From: a virus
Length of the DNA: 35,087 bases
UHGV virus genome: UHGV-0145327
Strand: one strand, 5' to 3'
The notes under the pieces are model-generated. The model saw nothing but the letters and a program-made list of their open reading frames with translations, searched no databases and was not told where the DNA came from. Shown here piece by piece: positions 1-29,129 of the stretch. Every line of letters starts with the position of its first letter. The first letter of the stretch is position 1. Both the position numbers and the translations under genes were made by a program.

Positions 1-694
1 TATCCTGCGTCCAGGCGTTGTACCACGGTGTATCTGTAATTTTAAATAACTCTCCTTGGATAAAATCTTCAGAAGCATAAAAAAGAGGCTGACCCGGTAT
101 TCTCTCAAATAAAAAACGAGCATTTTTAAATCGACTGACATCTGGAAGAGTTGATACTTTAAAAGTAAGCCCTCGCCCATCTATCTTTTCACCACCTGTT
201 GCAACAGAAAGTAATTCTGATAGAGCTGATGTATCATCATGAACACCATCACCAATAGCCCCCCAACCTCTTACATCATAACTGTCTCTCCATCTTGCTA
301 TCTGAAGTTTTGGGTATTTATTCGCTCCATCTGGGTCTTCTAATTGCTGTCGTAACTGATCAGGATCATACTTCAGCACATTCGGAAAATAGAACTGCTG
401 CACACCATACGCATCATAAACAGCCATAGAATGGCCTTGCACAGTTACGAACTTGGCAATCTGCCCGTTATATACCGGATATCCGGCAGCGTTAATGATG
501 ATTGGTTGCGAAACAGGAACGTGAGAGCCGTCTTCATTCTCTACATAAACCTGAATCTGGTTTTCTGGATTTACCGGGTCAGTGTCAATTTTACCGATAT
601 AAATTTTGCCATTGGCTACGGCTTTAAAAGAACGCGCCATAGTGAAGAGTTGCGATGGCATTGATACGATCACATTGGCTGTAATGTCTGTCAT
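1..694 (-). CDS. Tailspike protein, N-terminal portion only (gene continues past the left edge of the window)
   Basis: Minus-strand ORF starting at ATG 694..692, not in the ORF track because it has no stop in the window. My translation begins [59 protein letters not shown]..., which matches the P22 gp9 head-binding domain as I remember it. After roughly residue 115 the sequence no longer resembles P22 gp9. Confidence 0.85.
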
Positions 695-829: not shown

Positions 830-1081
830 ATGGGAAGAGATGACCCGCAATTTAATCTGCGGCTACCTTACGAATTAAAGGAAAAACTAAAACAGCGAGC
901 CAAATCCAATGGCCGCTCTCTTAATTCAGAATTAGTTCAGATAGTGACTGATGCTGTATCAAAGCCATCCAAAATTTCAGGCTATCGAGACGATGCGGAA
1001 CGCATCGCTGATGAGCAGTCTGAACTTGTTAAGAAGATGGTGTTTGATACGCTGAAGGATTTGTACAAAAAACCCACCTGA
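830..1081 (+). CDS. mnt: Mnt-family ribbon-helix-helix repressor (83 aa)
   Basis: Translation MGRDDPQFNLRLPYELKEKLKQRAKSNGRSLNSELVQIVTDAVSKPSKISGYRDDAERIADEQSELVKKMVFDTLKDLYKKPT is co-linear with P22 Mnt as I remember it, including the C-terminal ...DAERLADEQSELVKKMVFDTLKDLYKK segment. Confidence 0.9.
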   Translation: MGRDDPQFNLRLPYELKEKLKQRAKSNGRSLNSELVQIVTDAVSKPSKISGYRDDAERIADEQSELVKKMVFDTLKDLYKKPT

Positions 1082-1090
1082 CGGTGGGTT
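1071..1090. terminator. Hairpin AACCCACC-tgac-GGTGGGTT between convergent mnt (+) and the 322-aa gene (-); likely bidirectional terminator
   Basis: 8-bp perfect stem with a 4-nt loop that contains the mnt stop codon; A-run upstream and T-rich sequence downstream on the plus strand. Confidence 0.45.
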
Positions 1091-1096
1091 TCATAA

Positions 1097-2065
1097 TTAG
1101 ATTTCTGGTTTCATTCTTCCGAAAACCTTTTCTATTCCTTTTTCGTATTCTTCTCTTGTCTCACTCATCGCTGCGACACCAAGAAGCTTACCGATATGCT
1201 GACGCAAAGCCTTGACACCAATTTCAGAAAGGAACAGATGCAACTTATCAGATTGTTTTCCGTTCTCGTCTCGGCTGGCTCTAATTTGTTCAAGGATTTT
1301 ACCTTTACTCTTTGCTAGCGGGGTGTATATCTGCATGTTGGTTAGCTGCCCAAAACGAATAGGCCGTCCTTTCTCTGGCCTATTCAGGCCGTACAGTCGA
1401 TACCACTCCTCGTATAGCTCATCTGGAAATTCCTTTTCATATTGACGAGCCTCTTCACGAACAAACGCTTTGAACTCGTCAATGACAGCCTGAACTTCTG
1501 GACGATAACCAGCAAGCGCATACGCAACCCCCTTAATTCCCGCCTTAGCGGAGGCATTAATAAGTCTCTGTGCTGCGGCGGCTGCCTTTAACCGTGATTG
1601 TGGTAGATCGTCATTATCTTTGGCTTCTATTAGTGCCCTACCAATATCAACAATTGCTGTAATGTCATAACCTAACGCTTGATGAACGGTTTTAGACTTC
1701 GAAGTAAGTTGAAATTTATAGGGATTTTCCATTTTTCGCTGCAATTCTAGATCTCGGTATTTGCTCATATACTGAGCGCCAAGCAGTTGATCTAAATCCC
1801 TGGCATGTTCACCAATCCCTAGCAACTGAGATAATCCAGTTTTCGTAACAACGACAGTTTTCGACTCGTCATCCAGTACATAACATTCAGCATCAATGCC
1901 AAAATCATCTAAAAAGTTACCACGATGAGTTGCCCTGAGAATCTTACTTTTCCATCTTGCAGCAGCTGCTTTCTTTGCTATTTCAGAACGCTGCTCTTTA
2001 GTCAGCGACTTTGCGCGAGCGATCCCGCCCTTAGCTTTCCCTTCGCCACTTTTCTTTTCAGTCAT
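1097..2065 (-). CDS. Hypothetical protein, 322 aa, lysine/arginine-rich N-terminus, no family recognised
   Basis: Long minus-strand ORF. I place the start at ATG 2065 (MTEKKSGEGKAKGG...), which has an AAGGTG Shine-Dalgarno about 9 nt upstream; the upstream extension in the ORF track (MLVCVYSV...) has no ribosome-binding site. No catalytic motif recognised. Confidence 0.6.
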   Translation of the reverse strand: MTEKKSGEGKAKGGIARAKSLTKEQRSEIAKKAAAARWKSKILRATHRGNFLDDFGIDAECYVLDDESKTVVVTKTGLSQLLGIGEHARDLDQLLGAQYMSKYRDLELQRKMENPYKFQLTSKSKTVHQALGYDITAIVDIGRALIEAKDNDDLPQSRLKAAAAAQRLINASAKAGIKGVAYALAGYRPEVQAVIDEFKAFVREEARQYEKEFPDELYEEWYRLYGLNRPEKGRPIRFGQLTNMQIYTPLAKSKGKILEQIRASRDENGKQSDKLHLFLSEIGVKALRQHIGKLLGVAAMSETREEYEKGIEKVFGRMKPEI

Positions 2066-2160
2066 AATGCAAGCACCTTTGCTGTGATGTATGCTTGCAT
2101 TATATACACTGTACACACATACAAGCAAGCATAAAGCTAAAACAAAATGCTTGCATTACA
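2066..2160. promoter_or_regulatory. Divergent intergenic region with repeated ATGCTTGCAT / ATGCAAGCA motifs (candidate operator sites)
   Basis: ATGCAAGCA at 2067-2075 (inverted copy), ATGCTTGCAT at 2091-2100, CAAGCAAGCAT at 2122-2132, ATGCTTGCAT at 2147-2156, all between the start codons of two divergent genes. Confidence 0.4.
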
Positions 2161-2221
2161 ACCGCGCTACTCCAACTACACATTATCATCTGGTATCCTG
2201 CTCAAAACTAAGGAGGTTGGC

Positions 2222-2611
2222 GTGAAGCAATTTCTTACCGCTATGTTCTTATTCATATCTTTTGGGGCTACAGCAGAGTGCTGGGTCGTTGGAGATATGC
2301 GCGGAATAAGCTATTCAGAACGAAATAATTTCCATCCGGAAGAAGATGGTTTTAGTGGAACATTCATCATTAAGACAAACGGTGAAGATGCCAGCATCAC
2401 ATATTCTGGGACAGATGCGGGCGGCATGGCTTACAAAGCATTGTCTAAAAACTCCATCATAGGAATCGGCGCGAATGGCGAAACTCAACGCGTTATCGAC
2501 TCATGGGTAATACATCCTACTGGAACAGTTTTAATGTCAAAAACCATTTCCGGTTATGGAAATATGGATTCAACCAAAGCTTTTGTTGGAAAAGTAAAAA
2601 GAAAATGTTAG
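2222..2611 (+). CDS. Hypothetical secreted or periplasmic protein (about 129 aa) with an N-terminal signal peptide
   Basis: AGGAGG at 2211-2216 followed by in-frame GTG at 2222. Hydrophobic N-terminus VKQFLTAMFLFISFGATAEC; mature part has Cys near both ends. Plus-strand gene sitting inside a minus-strand late region. Confidence 0.6.
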   Translation: MKQFLTAMFLFISFGATAECWVVGDMRGISYSERNNFHPEEDGFSGTFIIKTNGEDASITYSGTDAGGMAYKALSKNSIIGIGANGETQRVIDSWVIHPTGTVLMSKTISGYGNMDSTKAFVGKVKRKC

Positions 2612-2635: not shown

Positions 2636-4477
2636 TTACTGCTGTGTTGCCTCAGTAGCAAACAGCGGTCTGATGGCATTCGCAGCGTTATTTATCGCTC
2701 TTTCATAGGCTGGTGTTCCTGCTTTGGTGTTTGCCAAACGAAGAAGCATATTCCTTGCTGCTTTGGACTCATACAAGCGCATCATTGCACCAAAACCAGC
2801 CTCAAGCCCCATTGATACGCCAAGGGTCGCAGTTGCGCCAATCGTCCTTATCCTGTTGGCTTGCGATTGCCCCGTCTGAGTTACTACATTTGCGGTGTCT
2901 GACCTTGCTGTTTGCTGTAGAACTTCATGAAGAGCATCAAGCTCTTTCATGTGCTTTCCAGAAAAAATAGTGTTGTAAATTTCACCGCCTGACTGAGATT
3001 TCAGCTTATTAACTTCAGTGATGAACTTGGCTGGAGAGTCACCGGCCTTTTCCGCTATTTTGCTGACATAAGCTGCACGCATAGCATCTTTCCCTTTATT
3101 ATCCAATGCGCTCCAGATTCGTTTTACGTCAGATGGTTTTCTGCTTAATACAACGGTATTTATAAGTTCAGGACTGGCTTCACTGCTTGCCTTGTTGAGC
3201 TTGTTGGCAATGTTTTTATTAAGCACCTTATTATAAACGTTTGCATAATCGGAATTTGCTTTAAGGTATTTTGCTGCGTCTGATGCACCGAGGTTTTTAG
3301 CAACTGCGTTACGAAGGTCTTTTGACATTGCATTCTCTACCATATTGGTAGCTGCTTTTGCCTGGTTGGGGAAGACCATAGCATCTCCCTGAACATTAGA
3401 TCTAAATGCTGTTCTGTGCTGACGCAAGAGATCAAACGTAACATCCAAATCAGTTGCAGGGTTTGCTAATTCTTCACGTAGGTTACGCAAGGATGTAAGC
3501 AGGCTTTGATTGGCAGACGTCCCAAGCCGTTCCTGTCTTGCGATCGCTGTATTCAGAGCATTCATGGTATTTGTGGTATCAACTGCGGCATTACCCATTT
3601 TATTGGTGACGTCATTGATAACAGCGCCAGCGGCATCCTTCCGCCCCCTTAACGTGGTGGTAAGAGATTTCACCACATCATCAGGGTTGTACTCACCAAA
3701 CCGGTCAAAATAATTACTTACCAGCTTACTACGCGTTGCATATTGCTCCGCTCGCTTTGAGCCTGTCCCGAGCAAAGCCCCCTCGGCATCCTGAGTTAGG
3801 CCGCGAGTGAAAGCATTTTTCGGCGGGATAACATCAGATGTCATTGGTGTCACACCCATCGATTCTGATGTGGCAATTTTCTTCGCCACTTCTGGCGCAA
3901 TATCACCTTTTATAGCCGTTATTCCACGCCCTATTCCCTTTGCTGCTGCGGAAAGAACACCCTGAGCGGCAAGGTTAACTCCGGCATTTTTAGCTGCATT
4001 TTGTGCGAAATCGCCTTTCTGATTTGCGGCCTCTGCCAGTGATCCAATAGCCATGCTTCCTGCCGTTCCAACTCCTGGAACTAAATACCCACCAATTGTT
4101 TCACCGGCTTGCGCGTAGGGGTCTGTCGGTCTGTCTACTGGACGATAAACATCATCCAAAACCTTGGGTCCACCAAGCCCCTGACTGATTGCATTAATCA
4201 GACTTGCGCCGCCCTGCAATACGTCAAATGGTATGTTTACCAGACCACGACCAGCCTGTTCTGCAATTTGCCCTGCACTTTGACCACCAGTGAGCCAATC
4301 GCCAGCTTGTTGCATCAATGATGGTTCTTCACGTGCTGGTTCATTGCTATCCTGGCTGACAGTTTGTTGCTGAACAGACTGTCCAGCAAAATACTCATCA
4401 ATGGCAGATCCAATATCTTCCGTGCTCGTACCATCAGGGAAGGTAAATGTCTTACCGTTTGCAGTTACTTTCATCAT
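2636..4477 (-). CDS. Internal virion ejection protein, P22 gp16-like (613 aa)
   Basis: Size and position (last gene of the late operon, after the gp20-like gene) match the P22 order 7-20-16; Gly/Ala-rich sequence typical of ejection proteins. Confidence 0.8.
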
Positions 4478-26705: not shown

Positions 26706-26768
26706 ATAACTCAAGTTATAAAAAATAGCAATAACCTTTGTTATTTTACTTTGGATAACCGTAGTTAT
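26706..26768. promoter_or_regulatory. OR operator cluster: three ATAAC-N4-GTTAT sites between cro and cI (PR/PRM region)
   Basis: ATAACtcaaGTTAT (26706-26719), ATAACctttGTTAT (26731-26744), ATAACcgtaGTTAT (26755-26768). Confidence 0.6.
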
Positions 26769-26780
26769 AGATTTGTGGGT

Positions 26781-27488
26781 ATGAAAACATTCGCAGAAAG
26801 ACTAAATGCAGCCATGAGCTCAGCAGGGGTATCACAATCACAGCTTGCTGACATGGTTGGAATATCTCAGCCAGCCATACAGAAGATGTCGTCCGGTAAA
26901 ACAAACGGATCTCGCAAGATGGTTGAATTAGCCAATGCTTTAAAAGTGCGCCCTGAATGGCTTAGTTCTGGTATTGGTGAAATGAGGGATGGTGCACATG
27001 AAGAACCATCCAATGTCCGTGAGTCATCTTTAAAAGCTGTGGTATGGGAAGACATTAAAAGAAACGATGACGAGTTTGTTGCGTTGCCTCTTCTTAACGT
27101 TTCGCTTTCAGCTGGAAGCGGTAGCTGCGAGCTAGAGGAATCATCGGAGTTCTCTTTGGTTTTCAGAAAGCACTATCTGAAAAAGATGGGAGTATCTGAA
27201 AGATCAGCCAAGCTAGTTAGGGTTGTAGGGCAAAGCATGGAACCAACGCTTCACGATGGCGATGTTGTTGGTGTTAACACGCAAGATACCACCATCAGAG
27301 ATGGTAAAACCTACGCTATTTGCCAGTCTGATTTGTTACGAGTAAAAACATTAATCGCCACCCCTACATCGGTGATAATCAGATCAATAAATCGCGAAGA
27401 GTACCCGGATGAAGTAATGGATAGAGATGAATTTCATGAAACCGTAAGGATTATTGGCAGAGTATTCTGGTCGTCTCATAGTTGGTAA
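26781..27488 (+). CDS. cI: CI-type prophage repressor with HTH and LexA-like S24 autocleavage domain (235 aa from MKTFAERL)
   Basis: HTH QSQLADMVGISQPAIQKM; C-terminal S24 motifs (VVGQSMEPTLHDGDVV Ser, downstream Lys). ATG 26751 is an alternative start but would overlap the third operator. Confidence 0.85.
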   Translation: MKTFAERLNAAMSSAGVSQSQLADMVGISQPAIQKMSSGKTNGSRKMVELANALKVRPEWLSSGIGEMRDGAHEEPSNVRESSLKAVVWEDIKRNDDEFVALPLLNVSLSAGSGSCELEESSEFSLVFRKHYLKKMGVSERSAKLVRVVGQSMEPTLHDGDVVGVNTQDTTIRDGKTYAICQSDLLRVKTLIATPTSVIIRSINREEYPDEVMDRDEFHETVRIIGRVFWSSHSW

Positions 27489-27528
27489 CCGATAATCAGA
27501 AGAAGACTTACGGAAGTGCGGAGGGATA

Positions 27529-27825
27529 ATGGAATTTCTGATAGTTTTTGTTGTTGTTTTGGTCATCATTCTTTTTGTTTTGCTAAGCATTAGTAAAAAG
27601 CTATCTCAAGTGATTGAACATAGCTCTAATCGCGCAAAAGAAGAAGAGCATCTAATTGATATAAAAGAGATTCTCTCTGATATAAAAATCACATTAGATG
27701 AAATAAAATACACAACAGATCTAATTGAACAGTATAAAATACCAACCCCAAACGAGAGAAAAGCAATAGATCAATATCGTATTGACTTAGAAATCGACGA
27801 AATGCTAAGCAAAAGAAAAGACTAA
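27529..27825 (+). CDS. Small membrane-anchored hypothetical protein (98 aa) in the rexAB position, very AT-rich
   Basis: Directly downstream of cI on the same strand; N-terminal hydrophobic segment MEFLIVFVVVLVIILFVLLSI followed by a charged, helix-prone region; followed by an intrinsic terminator. Confidence 0.6.
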   Translation: MEFLIVFVVVLVIILFVLLSISKKLSQVIEHSSNRAKEEEHLIDIKEILSDIKITLDEIKYTTDLIEQYKIPTPNERKAIDQYRIDLEIDEMLSKRKD

Positions 27826-27830
27826 AAACA

Positions 27831-27858
27831 CCCGGCCTCAGCGCCGGGTTTTCTTTTC
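27831..27858 (+). terminator. Intrinsic terminator ending the cI/rex-slot operon
   Basis: CCCGGC-ctcagc-GCCGGG followed by TTTTCTTTTCC, 5 bp after the stop codon. Confidence 0.65.
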
Positions 27859-27978
27859 CTGCCGTTCACCACCCAATCACCCATCATCATCATAGACAAG
27901 CATCAAGCCAAAGGTAACACCTTCACCCCGCACGCAAGCCCTCAAACACCAATCAATCAGCAACATTTACAAAAATAA

Positions 27979-28064
27979 AATACCTTTGTTATCCATCACT
28001 TATAACTTATTTACCACAAAATATAAATTAGGTTATTGACCACACCTATAACCTAAGTTATCTT
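27979..28064. promoter_or_regulatory. OL/PL region: operator-like sites of the same ATAAC-N4-GTTAT family and a candidate PL (-35 TTGACC at 28036-28041)
   Basis: ATAACctaaGTTAT at 28048-28061 is a full site; ATACCtttgTTAT near 27980-27992 is a degenerate copy; TTGACC with TATCTT 17 bp downstream, pointing toward N. Confidence 0.5.
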
Positions 28065-28110
28065 TAAGCCATCAGCAGGGCGCTGGTAGCCAAACGGAAC
28101 AGATTGGCAG

Positions 28111-28151
28111 GCTCTTTAACATTGATGGGATTGTCCCGCCGAAATGCGGGA
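28111..28151 (+). promoter_or_regulatory. nutL: boxA (GCTCTTTAA) and boxB hairpin (TCCCGC-cgaaat-GCGGGA) upstream of N
   Basis: boxA at 28111-28119; boxB at 28134-28151 has the identical sequence to the boxB found in nutR. Confidence 0.6.
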
Positions 28152-28258
28152 ACCAAAGAGTAGTTGGCTTTGGGGTGGCGTGAAGTGCAGCTGCACGACG
28201 GCAACCGGAAGATAAGCACCCGGCGCGTCACCGCCAAAGTCAATCATCGGAGGTCAAC

Positions 28259-28531
28259 ATGACAGTAGTCATTACATATCTGGCTGACGATAACGCCAGA
28301 AATCGCCGCAGAGCACGCAGACAGGCTCAACGTGAACAGGCAATGCAAGAGCAGCGACTGGCGCGAAAAATTGCGCTAAAGCTCTCTGGTTGCGTCAGAG
28401 CAGATAAAGCAGCATCACTCGGAAGCCTTCGCTGCAAGAAGGCAGATGAATGCAGTGGAAGTATTTGCCTGCCAAACGTAGCCATTTACGCGGCAGGCTA
28501 CCGGAAATCAAAACAACTGACGGCGAGATGA
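28259..28531 (+). CDS. N: N-type transcription antiterminator (90 aa; P22 gp24-like)
   Basis: Arginine-rich motif DNARNRRRARRQAQREQ near the N-terminus; C-terminal LPNVAIYAAGYRKSKQLTAR matches the P22 gp24 C-terminus (LPGVALYAAGHRKSKQITAR) as recalled. Confidence 0.85.
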   Translation: MTVVITYLADDNARNRRRARRQAQREQAMQEQRLARKIALKLSGCVRADKAASLGSLRCKKADECSGSICLPNVAIYAAGYRKSKQLTAR

Positions 28532-28547
28532 TAAATTAATTTGCTAA

Positions 28548-29129
28548 TTACTTGTTTTTGCCATGCTTATACTGAGCGATAAGTTCATCCATAAGACTGT
28601 CTTTCTTCCCAGCAAACCTAATGTAGCACTCATTTCTATAGCGTTCCGGGATAACAAAACGGTCGATTTCAGGATATCCAGTAGCAGAAGGTACCCGAAT
28701 AAGAAGCCCTTTTTCGAGCAATGAGATTGCTTCAGGGCTTCCCTTTTCTGTCTTTAGCTGGTTATTAGCGGCTACAGCGAATGCCAAATACGCTCTTTCT
28801 CCAAGAGTTAACGAATCAAACAAATCTTGCACGTATTTCTCTTCTTTAGATTTGCGCTTCTGAGCAGCGAATATCTCAATTCTTTCAGTCACAGCGTGAT
28901 AAGCGGAATTAACAACGCCGTTAAGCACATAGCTAACGCAAAACAACAGGATGTAATACATCCAGTAATGAGGAAGGATTTCTGGATTATGCAGGTTTAT
29001 CCATTCTTTTACGCTTACAGGCATAACAATAATCAATATGATTAGGATGATTAGCATATGAATCAACTGTTTAAGTGTCATTCCTTGCAGGAAAAAATGC
29101 ATTAGTTCCTGCCACCATGAGTTGTTCAT
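28548..29129 (-). CDS. sieB: Superinfection exclusion protein SieB-like membrane protein (193 aa)
   Basis: Lies next to N on the opposite strand as sieB does in lambda; similar size (about 192 aa); N-terminal transmembrane segments (LIHMLIILIILIIVMPV, YWMYYILLFCVSYVL). Confidence 0.75.
   Translation of the reverse strand: MNNSWWQELMHFFLQGMTLKQLIHMLIILIILIIVMPVSVKEWINLHNPEILPHYWMYYILLFCVSYVLNGVVNSAYHAVTERIEIFAAQKRKSKEEKYVQDLFDSLTLGERAYLAFAVAANNQLKTEKGSPEAISLLEKGLLIRVPSATGYPEIDRFVIPERYRNECYIRFAGKKDSLMDELIAQYKHGKNK

Follow-up and report, generated by a model that had tools for sequence, protein, structure and literature searches.

The exclusion protein Hex of the temperate phage 434 has been known genetically since 1980. 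Its name stands for heterologous exclusion, which, in the account given by PMC3564112 with Susskind and Botstein as its source, is the exclusion of P22 by lambda-imm434 lysogens of Salmonella. The hex gene lies directly downstream of cI and is co-transcribed with it from PRM; deletion of hex raises spontaneous induction about 30-fold in a recA-dependent manner, a 61-residue fragment (sHex) partly complements the deletion and prevents the 434 and P22 repressors from being cleaved in vitro, and the full-length protein is toxic when overexpressed (PMC3564112). A second exclusion protein, SieA, blocks DNA injection by P22-like phages, and the paper on it contains no discussion of alternative cargo in the sieA slot (PMC10883804). 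Here we describe the sieA slot of UHGV-0145327 (35,087 nucleotides, hereafter the window), a P22-like (Lederbergvirus-type) prophage of Escherichia coli with its late genes on the minus strand. The slot holds two open reading frames (ORFs): ORF-A (1097-2065, minus strand), which encodes a 322-residue P63C-domain protein from an ATG codon, and ORF-B (2222-2611, plus strand), which encodes a 129-residue protein from a GTG codon; 156 nucleotides lie between 2065 and 2222.

P63C proteins (PF10546), named after p63 of Myxococcus phage Mx8, include L0095 of 933W and ORF23 of ST104, and ORF-A shares their domain; we found no functional work on P63C in the literature. A first-pass annotation of the window placed the two ORFs correctly, in position and strand, between mnt and gene 16, and took them for one module of two families that it did not recognise. 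The region is, instead, a composite of two independently mobile cassettes from families that are catalogued and functionally obscure. With moderate confidence, we propose that two accessory ('moron') cassettes were joined by recombination in the sieA slot, ORF-B serving periplasmic exclusion and ORF-A encoding a self-repressing DNA-binding protein. The most unexpected result is that an operator-like array upstream of ORF-A is conserved across phyla and that the gene is linked to IS1-type insertion sequences; we found neither described, and no literature on the box sequence, the box array or the IS1 linkage.

The array, which had been missed by the first-pass annotation, consists of four near-palindromic boxes in the intergenic region, all oriented copies of ATGCAAGCAT and given here on the minus strand. 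Box 1 (ATGCAAGCAT, 2147-2156) is the most distal from ORF-A and the nearest to ORF-B; it is followed by box 2 (ATGCTTGCTT, 2123-2132), box 3 (ATGCAAGCAT, 2091-2100) and box 4 (GGTGCTTGCATT, about 2066-2077), which is positioned between the Shine-Dalgarno (SD) sequence and the start codon of ORF-A. These four boxes within 90 base pairs make up four of the seven matches in the window at one mismatch or fewer, where about 8.4 would be expected by chance in 35 kilobases. A consensus promoter scan returned no promoter for ORF-A; the predicted promoter came to light through cross-species comparison only. The geometry seen in other species predicts a perfect −10 element, TATAAT, at 2099-2104, abutted by box 3, and a −35 element, TTGCTT, at 2123-2128 inside box 2, separated by an 18-nucleotide spacer; box 3 would thereby cover the predicted transcription start. 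Beyond the stop codon, the hairpin CCCACC-TGAC-GGTGGG followed by TTTTTT (1067-1093, minus strand) reads as an intrinsic terminator of ORF-A; it is weaker in the mnt direction, and the consensus scan did not list the hairpin. With its predicted promoter, its boxes and a strong terminator after the stop codon, ORF-A is built like a cassette that is autonomous. Between boxes 2 and 3 there is also a weak LexA-box-like sequence, CTGT-N8-ACAA (2109-2124), that agrees with the consensus at 13 of 20 positions and is probably not significant. The boxes bear what we take to be a resemblance to the CytR octamer GTTGCATT.

A scan with one genome per species yielded 80 P63C loci (41-72% identity) from Enterobacterales, Burkholderiales, Rhizobiales, Acidobacteriota, Myxococcota, Verrucomicrobiota, Abditibacteriota and Firmicutes genomes assembled from metagenomes. 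Three or more exact TGCWWGCA boxes were present within 143 nucleotides upstream of the gene in 55 of 85 loci, against a background in the flanks of 0.007 per 143 nucleotides, and no further box clusters were found in the locus flanks. An ordered AA-TT-AA-TT chain (TGCAAGCA, TGCTTGCA, TGCAAGCA, TGCTTGCA) with spacings of 22-25, 30-34 and 22-25 nucleotides was found in 65 of 89 loci. The core GCAAGCA is at least 96% invariant over 248 boxes, taken from 62 distinct upstream regions whose spacers are unrelated. These 62 regions share a −35-like TTGCAT inside box 2 and, 17-18 nucleotides further, a −10 element, TAnaAT, that ends in the first base of box 3; the SD sequence immediately precedes box 4, which is followed or overlapped by the ATG. 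The arrangement is retained when the gene changes its place. An 80%-identical gene in Klebsiella lambdoid prophages, which stands after cI and a terminator in the slot of lambda rexAB, has the same boxes at the same spacing, as does a gene of 52-54% identity that belongs to a different P22-like prophage of E. coli, and altogether the boxes accompany the gene with or without a transposase and in three kinds of prophage slot. In their position beside cI or in immI, ORF-A-type genes resemble lambda rexAB and 933W stk. The loci without exact boxes, 14 of the 85, include L026, L036, L040, L044, L046, L052, L054, L059, L062 and L072; at least six of the 14, mostly from Acidobacteriota, encode P63C proteins with an extra N-terminal segment (..FKLTS.AAKELS.LGAAKGG..), and some have a larger gap to the transposase. 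Such loci may use a different operator.

The pattern of conservation favours the view that the boxes are a DNA sequence recognised by a protein rather than an RNA element. We infer autoregulation because ORF-A is the only protein common to all of the contexts and because the boxes occur nowhere else in the flanks. According to this model, the ORF-A protein would bind the boxes, probably as a dimer of dimers, and thereby keep its own production down; an effect on the divergent promoter of the sieA slot, beside box 1, is possible as well. A host factor was considered as the box binder and judged unlikely, because the box motif is invariant across phyla. The arrangement is reminiscent of the C proteins of restriction-modification systems and their C-boxes, which likewise combine a mobile gene with its own short palindromic operator boxes over the promoter. 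There is, however, no sequence kinship between the two, ORF-A is far larger and has an extra conserved domain, and its regulatory role is a prediction.

Alternatively, the boxes might not be a protein operator and might work as hairpins of RNA or single-stranded DNA, for instance in a leader in which the SD sequence and the start codon are concealed. A perfect 12-base-pair inverted repeat (2064-2075/2092-2103) that includes the start codon is in keeping with this idea, as is the ability of the 126-nucleotide region to fold as a long RNA/DNA hairpin (−45.5 kcal/mol, z score −3.9). The hairpin of boxes 3 and 4 alone, however, is unexceptional (z score −1.0), and deviations from the consensus mostly break the pairing, with 45-63 cells broken versus 8-13 compensated per box pairing; it is the sequence itself that is conserved, beyond mere complementarity. 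No Rfam family was found, only spurious microRNA-type matches far below the gathering scores. Moreover, the conserved −10 element abuts box 3, which places the expected transcript start within box 3 and leaves boxes 1 and 2 out of the predicted mRNA. Because covariation is absent and the position of the −10 element is conserved, we set the RNA-hairpin model aside as very unlikely and continue to regard the boxes as a probable protein operator.

The ORF-A protein begins MTEKKSGEGKAKGG, with an identical call in RefSeq, and is lysine- and arginine-rich, as had been noted before. Its family can be recognised: it scores 52.7 bits against Pfam P63C (gathering cut-off 26.1; residues 199-286 aligned with positions 3-92 of the 93 in the profile) and matches phrog_2384 over residues 6-321 (positions 4-328 of 338; E value 1.7e-104). 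The layout comprises a basic helix pair, KGG..ARA..LT.EQRSEIAKKAAAARW, at residues 11-38, an alpha/beta domain at residues 40-195 approximately, and the P63C domain at residues 199-286; the N-terminal basic motif can be written KGG..ARA..L..E.R.EIAKKAA.ARW. Fold comparison gave weak similarity to winged-helix and DnaD domains. P63C was the sole Pfam match of ORF-A at E values up to 1, with no P22_AR_N/C, ANT, KilA-N or Bro-N domain, and residues 40-198 of eight homologues matched nothing in Pfam at E values up to 10. NCBIfam contained no match for ORF-A, and a PDB sequence-profile search with its family found nothing. Neither ORF-A nor ORF-B matched any model of PADLOC-DB v2 at E values up to 1, and the suggestion that the region is a defence module gained no support. 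The P63C family is large (1682 matches) and its full-length relatives of ORF-A, 25-30% identical, are spread over the accessory regions of many temperate phages, among them Stx, Salmonella, Burkholderia and Gordonia phages (e.g., 933W L0095, ST104 ORF23, Barco, and Petra gp34); the box array and the IS1 linkage belong to the phrog_2384-type subfamily. A P63C pseudogene beside DnaB in E. coli MRE162 proved to be a deletion artefact and was uninformative.

One could imagine that ORF-A takes the place of the absent Ant as a regulator of the antirepressor type, given that it lies in the immI region of a prophage that lacks ant. P63C is presumably ascribed by Pfam to the Iyer-Koonin-Aravind domains of Bro/KilA-type phage regulators. 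However, the P63C gene coexists with arc and ant in relatives, ORF-A lies on the sieA side of mnt and not on the ant side, the gene is found in insertion sequences and outside phages as well, and the protein matches none of the P22_AR, ANT, KilA-N and Bro-N profiles. We consider a substitution for Ant to be extremely unlikely.

Outside enterics, it is common for the P63C gene to be partnered with an insertion sequence. A divergent IS1-family DDE transposase (Pfam DDE_Tnp_IS1, E value 2e-7) is encoded 110-190 nucleotides upstream of the P63C gene in 46 of the 80 loci, and the segment common to unrelated genomes, about 2.0-2.5 kilobases in length, comprises the transposase, the boxes and the P63C gene, in some cases joined by a small gene. 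In L027, L051 (20 of 20 matches) and L077, this unit lies in its entirety between terminal inverted repeats that begin GGGTAGTG, although the search for such repeats was clearly successful in only three to four of 28 loci. The enclosed IS1-family element of about 2.3-2.5 kilobases (repeats GGGTAGTG..TCAG; L027, 3972-6276; L051, 4001-6519; L077, 3990-6276), which carries the transposase, four boxes and the P63C gene, is apparently undescribed. Such IS1-P63C elements often carry, in addition, a convergent gene of 73-98 codons. The C-terminal tail of this small downstream-encoded protein repeats the N-terminal basic motif of ORF-A at the IS-type loci, and its N-terminus, for which there was no Pfam match, is what we take to be HicB-like. 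If the HicB-like reading holds, the tail would stand at the position of the DNA-binding domain of HicB antitoxins. We take the recurrence of the basic motif, like the weak fold similarity to winged-helix and DnaD domains, as a hint in favour of the proposed DNA binding by ORF-A.

The window locus resembles IS1-family elements with an extra gene in that these enclose a homologous P63C gene together with an IS1-type transposase; it differs from them in having the gene-plus-boxes unit only, without transposase or terminal repeats, and no transposase was found beside ORF-A in any enterobacterial prophage locus examined. These findings bear on the possibility that ORF-A, as an accessory or regulatory gene, was left behind by an IS1-family element, with boxes that regulate the transposase and with no role in the prophage. 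The frequency of the transposase at P63C loci, the shared segment and the terminal repeats in three loci are what this explanation would predict, but it does not account for the absence of a transposase from the window and the examined enterobacterial prophages, nor for a gene that is intact and identical in several E. coli strains. The Klebsiella homologue, moreover, has kept all of its boxes in a different slot, and the boxes track P63C, with four boxes at many loci that have no transposase. Even where no transposase is found, the gene has kept its boxes, which argues that they serve ORF-A rather than the transposase, and we consider a leftover without a prophage role to be unlikely. The gene-plus-boxes unit would instead be mobile across phyla, either as the partner gene of IS1-family elements or in 'rex-type' slots beside cI. 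Its recurrence beside cI-type repressors and in the sieA slot suggests a prophage-expressed accessory role for ORF-A.

The two ORFs had been thought to form a two-gene module. Among 5426 complete E. coli genomes, ORF-B DNA was present in 147 and ORF-A DNA in 73 (near full length in 46), whereas the junction seen in the window was found in just 11. Relatives with ORF-A and without ORF-B lose similarity to the window at 2224-2230, the start codon of ORF-B, and relatives with ORF-B and without ORF-A lose it at 2169-2204. In other prophages, the partner of ORF-A is SieA, a membrane-anchored coiled-coil protein (phrog_5962) or a 161-residue protein; ORF-B, for its part, occurs without ORF-A in Salmonella phage Emek and, in relatives, in an operon with mnt and a Rap1a homologue. 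ORF-A and ORF-B are thus not an evolutionary pair and recombine independently. In phage 611R6, the phrog_5962 protein, with a transmembrane anchor and a coiled coil, occupies the slot beside the P63C boxes (L003, 4081-4485), and at L011, 3761-3919, only a truncated remnant of it is left.

The boundaries also show how ORF-B came to be in its slot. Between the joints at 2169-2204 and 2224-2230 there is a conserved sieA-slot leader (2169-2221, plus strand) with the SD sequence AGGAGG at 2211-2216. The 34-62 nucleotides before the ORF-B start (2169/2191-2224, SD sequence included) are common to 69 P22-like phage records, where they precede sieA-slot genes. ORF-B has the further marks of a sieA-slot gene, in that gene 16 and mnt flank it and it runs antisense to the late operon. 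Judging from these joints, the ORF-B coding sequence replaced that of sieA exactly at the start codon, and because of this swap ORF-B uses the leader and ribosome-binding site of other P22-like phages. Since the cargo of the slot is SieA, a membrane-anchored coiled-coil protein or the putatively exported ORF-B, the slot behaves as an exchange site for envelope cargo, and the earlier suggestion that it is a site for prophage-expressed genes is supported. ORF-B thus shares with SieA its genomic slot, its orientation and the upstream leader with its SD sequence, and both are envelope proteins, by prediction in the case of ORF-B. They differ in that SieA is a polytopic inner-membrane protein and ORF-B a predicted soluble barrel with a cleavable signal. 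No match to SieA (PF26849/phrog_7745) was found for ORF-B in Pfam or PHROG, and there is no sequence or fold kinship; a true SieA in the same slot of L002 scored 1.8e-107.

The first-pass annotation had ascribed a signal peptide to ORF-B, and this agrees with what we see. The N-terminal sequence, MKQFLTAMFLFISFGATA|EC, is of the Sec signal-peptide type and includes an AXA cleavage site, and it is the only hydrophobic segment of the protein; the predicted signal peptide covers residues 1-18 (2222-2275, plus strand; cleavage at ATA|EC) and leaves a mature protein of about 111 residues (2276-2611, plus strand, stop codon included). The GTG start codon lies 5 nucleotides past the SD sequence AGGAGG. 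RefSeq begins the protein at an internal ATG (122 residues); we favour the upstream GTG because homologues begin at the same codon and the SD sequence stands before it. ORF-B had no match in Pfam or NCBIfam. It is nonetheless a member of a recognisable family, since it matches phrog_2651 over its full length (E value 2.9e-61), as does 434 Hex (1.4e-58). In a translated search of phage genomes, ORF-B matched, over the full length and at 27% identity, genes that directly follow cI in 434, Sf6, HK446, HK633 and Sf101, and the alignment of ORF-B with 434 Hex extends from end to end (27% identity, E value 3e-12).

An exhaustive profile search gathered 119 cluster representatives of the Hex family, nearly all of 120-140 residues. 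Forty-nine diverse members keep the hydrophobic N-terminus, a Cys-Trp pair right after it (C20 in ORF-B), W95 and the C-terminal cysteine (C129); a Pfam scan of these 49 gave nothing credible, and a PDB sequence-profile search with the family found nothing. An AlphaFold2 model of ORF-B is a small, all-beta up-and-down barrel from residue 18 onward (predicted local distance difference test, pLDDT, 84.9), with low pLDDT to about residue 17. Because the first and last strands of the barrel adjoin, Cys20 and Cys129 are placed for a closing disulfide, and in the model a Cys20-Cys129 bond probably closes the barrel. In four long proteins (P0223, P0230, P0245 and P0258; 597-835 residues), the Hex-family profile matches three to six times in tandem, and the barrel therefore also exists as a repeated module.

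Within this family, 434 Hex (L005, 2501-2905; annotated as 'repressor protection protein') and its Sf6 homologue, the gene 38 product, are the closest described relatives of ORF-B. They are similar in size, have a signal-like N-terminus, the mature C-W motif, the conserved tryptophan and the C-terminal cysteine, and like ORF-B they are encoded by temperate lambdoid or P22-like phages. The location is different: hex adjoins cI, and ORF-B is in the sieA slot near the ejection-protein genes, about 24 kilobases from the cI-like gene of the window, and so lacks the cI-adjacency of the Hex family. We verified the reading frame of Hex, in which the published 158-residue ORF equals the annotated 134-residue ORF plus 24 upstream residues, so that the published fragment sHex (E43-N103) corresponds to E19-N79 of the 134-residue ORF. 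The fragment thus begins exactly at the predicted signal-peptidase site, ANS|ECW, and covers only about half of the predicted barrel. By its sequence, 434 Hex is probably exported.

Relatives of the window extend the link of ORF-B to the envelope. At loci L013-L019 (e.g., L013, 3399-4390), as in many P22-like prophages, an 87%-identical homologue of ORF-B is the last gene of an operon, after mnt and a gene for a 111-residue homologue of Rap1a (PF18602). Rap1a, a protein of the periplasm, confers immunity to a type VI amidase effector. An immI operon of a prophage thus seems to be a source of protective proteins for the periplasm, and we counted the co-operonic partners, the lysogen-expressed mnt and the homologue of periplasmic Rap1a, in favour of an exclusion role. 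A lysogen would make ORF-B, as lysogens make SieA, and, as its homology and its position suggest, the protein would act in the periplasm and exclude incoming phages. The likeliest route is interference at the envelope stage, that is, with the ejection-protein conduit or with passage through the cell wall. The suggestion that the region serves superinfection exclusion is therefore well founded for ORF-B, given its Hex homology and its slot, and is no more than tentative for ORF-A.

Several points weigh against the reading of two cassettes, one for exclusion and the other self-repressing. On the side of ORF-A, 14 of 85 loci have no exact TGCWWGCA boxes, the boxes could instead be bound by another factor, and there is the folding of the 126-nucleotide region described above. 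On the side of ORF-B, the identity to Hex is only 27%, Hex is encoded downstream of cI and outside the sieA slot, the barrel fold is generic and indicates no ligand or target, and a sigma-70 consensus scan found no promoter for ORF-B. Finally, the sole biochemical study assigns to Hex a cytoplasmic role, the inhibition of RecA-stimulated repressor cleavage (PMC3564112).

That last point raises the possibility that ORF-B is cytoplasmic and, as published for Hex, stabilises lysogeny by shielding the repressor of the prophage from RecA-stimulated autocleavage. The induction, complementation and in vitro cleavage results of PMC3564112 argue for it, and the window prophage does have an S24-type repressor. 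However, the published mechanism is cytoplasmic and the features of ORF-B predict export: the signal-like N-terminus and the terminal cysteine pair are conserved in the family. Taken together, the start of sHex at the predicted signal-peptidase site, its half-barrel content and the toxicity of the full-length protein, which may be that of exported proteins that jam secretion, make the published cytoplasmic mechanism hard to reconcile with the sequence. ORF-B, moreover, is unlinked to cI and lies in the slot of an envelope-acting exclusion gene, and its operon partner in relatives is the homologue of a periplasmic immunity protein. We therefore regard a cytoplasmic ORF-B as quite improbable.

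Another scenario keeps ORF-B in the periplasm and makes it an immunity protein or inhibitor, of the sort of PliC/MliC or Rap1a, directed against peptidoglycan-degrading enzymes (amidase effectors of the type VI secretion system, or lysozymes), a host-protecting form of lysogenic conversion. The structural match that points this way, PhiA, ranks 47th among generic barrels, no sequence similarity of ORF-B to any inhibitor family was found, and the single member of its family with genetic data shows a phage-exclusion phenotype. This scenario, too, seems to us quite doubtful, and periplasmic exclusion remains the role that we favour.

A broader proposal, which we put forward tentatively and think may well be wrong, combines the two halves of the locus. 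ORF-A and its boxes would be an undescribed mobile unit, a single self-repressing DNA-binding gene that has spread over many bacterial phyla with a nearly constant operator, either IS1-borne or standing alone in the exclusion and defence slots of prophages; in P22-like prophages it would also gate the exclusion gene in the sieA slot, and the Hex family would be periplasmic excluders that act at the level of the envelope.

The neighbours of the two ORFs are as the first-pass annotation had them. The N-terminal part of the tailspike gene (2-694, minus strand) and mnt, an Arc/Mnt-family repressor gene convergent with ORF-A (830-1081, plus strand; Pfam Arc 2.8e-22, Repressor_Mnt 2.2e-18), lie on one side; on the other lies the homologue of gene 16, which encodes a DNA ejection protein (2636-4477, minus strand; identified by RefSeq names and by PF26808 on an equivalent 613-residue protein). 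None of sieA, arc and ant is present at the locus, again as had been noted. The accompanying claim that the two ORFs replaced all three genes stands for sieA alone. The ORFs fill just the sieA/orf59a slot, on the gene 16 side of mnt; arc and ant were deleted, only 135 nucleotides remaining between the tailspike start and the mnt start, and in relatives arc and ant occur together with the P63C gene. The loss of arc and ant makes mnt an orphan repressor. A perfect 15-base-pair palindrome, AGACCACAGTGGTCT, at 752-766 (within 695-829), directly upstream of the tailspike gene, occupies the position of the Mnt operator and Pant, and Mnt may control tailspike transcription in this prophage.

The immunity region of the prophage (26751-29129) encodes a cI-like repressor with a helix-turn-helix and a peptidase S24 domain (26751-27488), followed, in a rex/hex-type slot, by a 98-residue protein with an N-terminal transmembrane segment and a coiled coil (27529-27825), which the phrog_5962 protein of 611R6 resembles in style. 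A SieB homologue is encoded at 28548-29129 (minus strand; Pfam 1.1e-25), and the prophage is thus home to several genes that are candidates for exclusion.

These results identify the sieA slot as a swap site in which one alternative cargo is a relative of the exclusion protein Hex. They also provide a rare case of a 10-base-pair motif that, upstream of a single gene family and across many phyla, hardly varies in its number, its order and its spacing, and the box array offers a direct experimental route into the P63C family, which is common in temperate phages and IS1-type elements. The predicted export and the probable disulfide-closed barrel of the Hex family are directly testable and, if they prove true, the published mechanism needs to be revisited; should the combined proposal of a mobile self-repressing unit and periplasmic Hex proteins be correct, the RecA-based mechanism published for Hex would be overturned.

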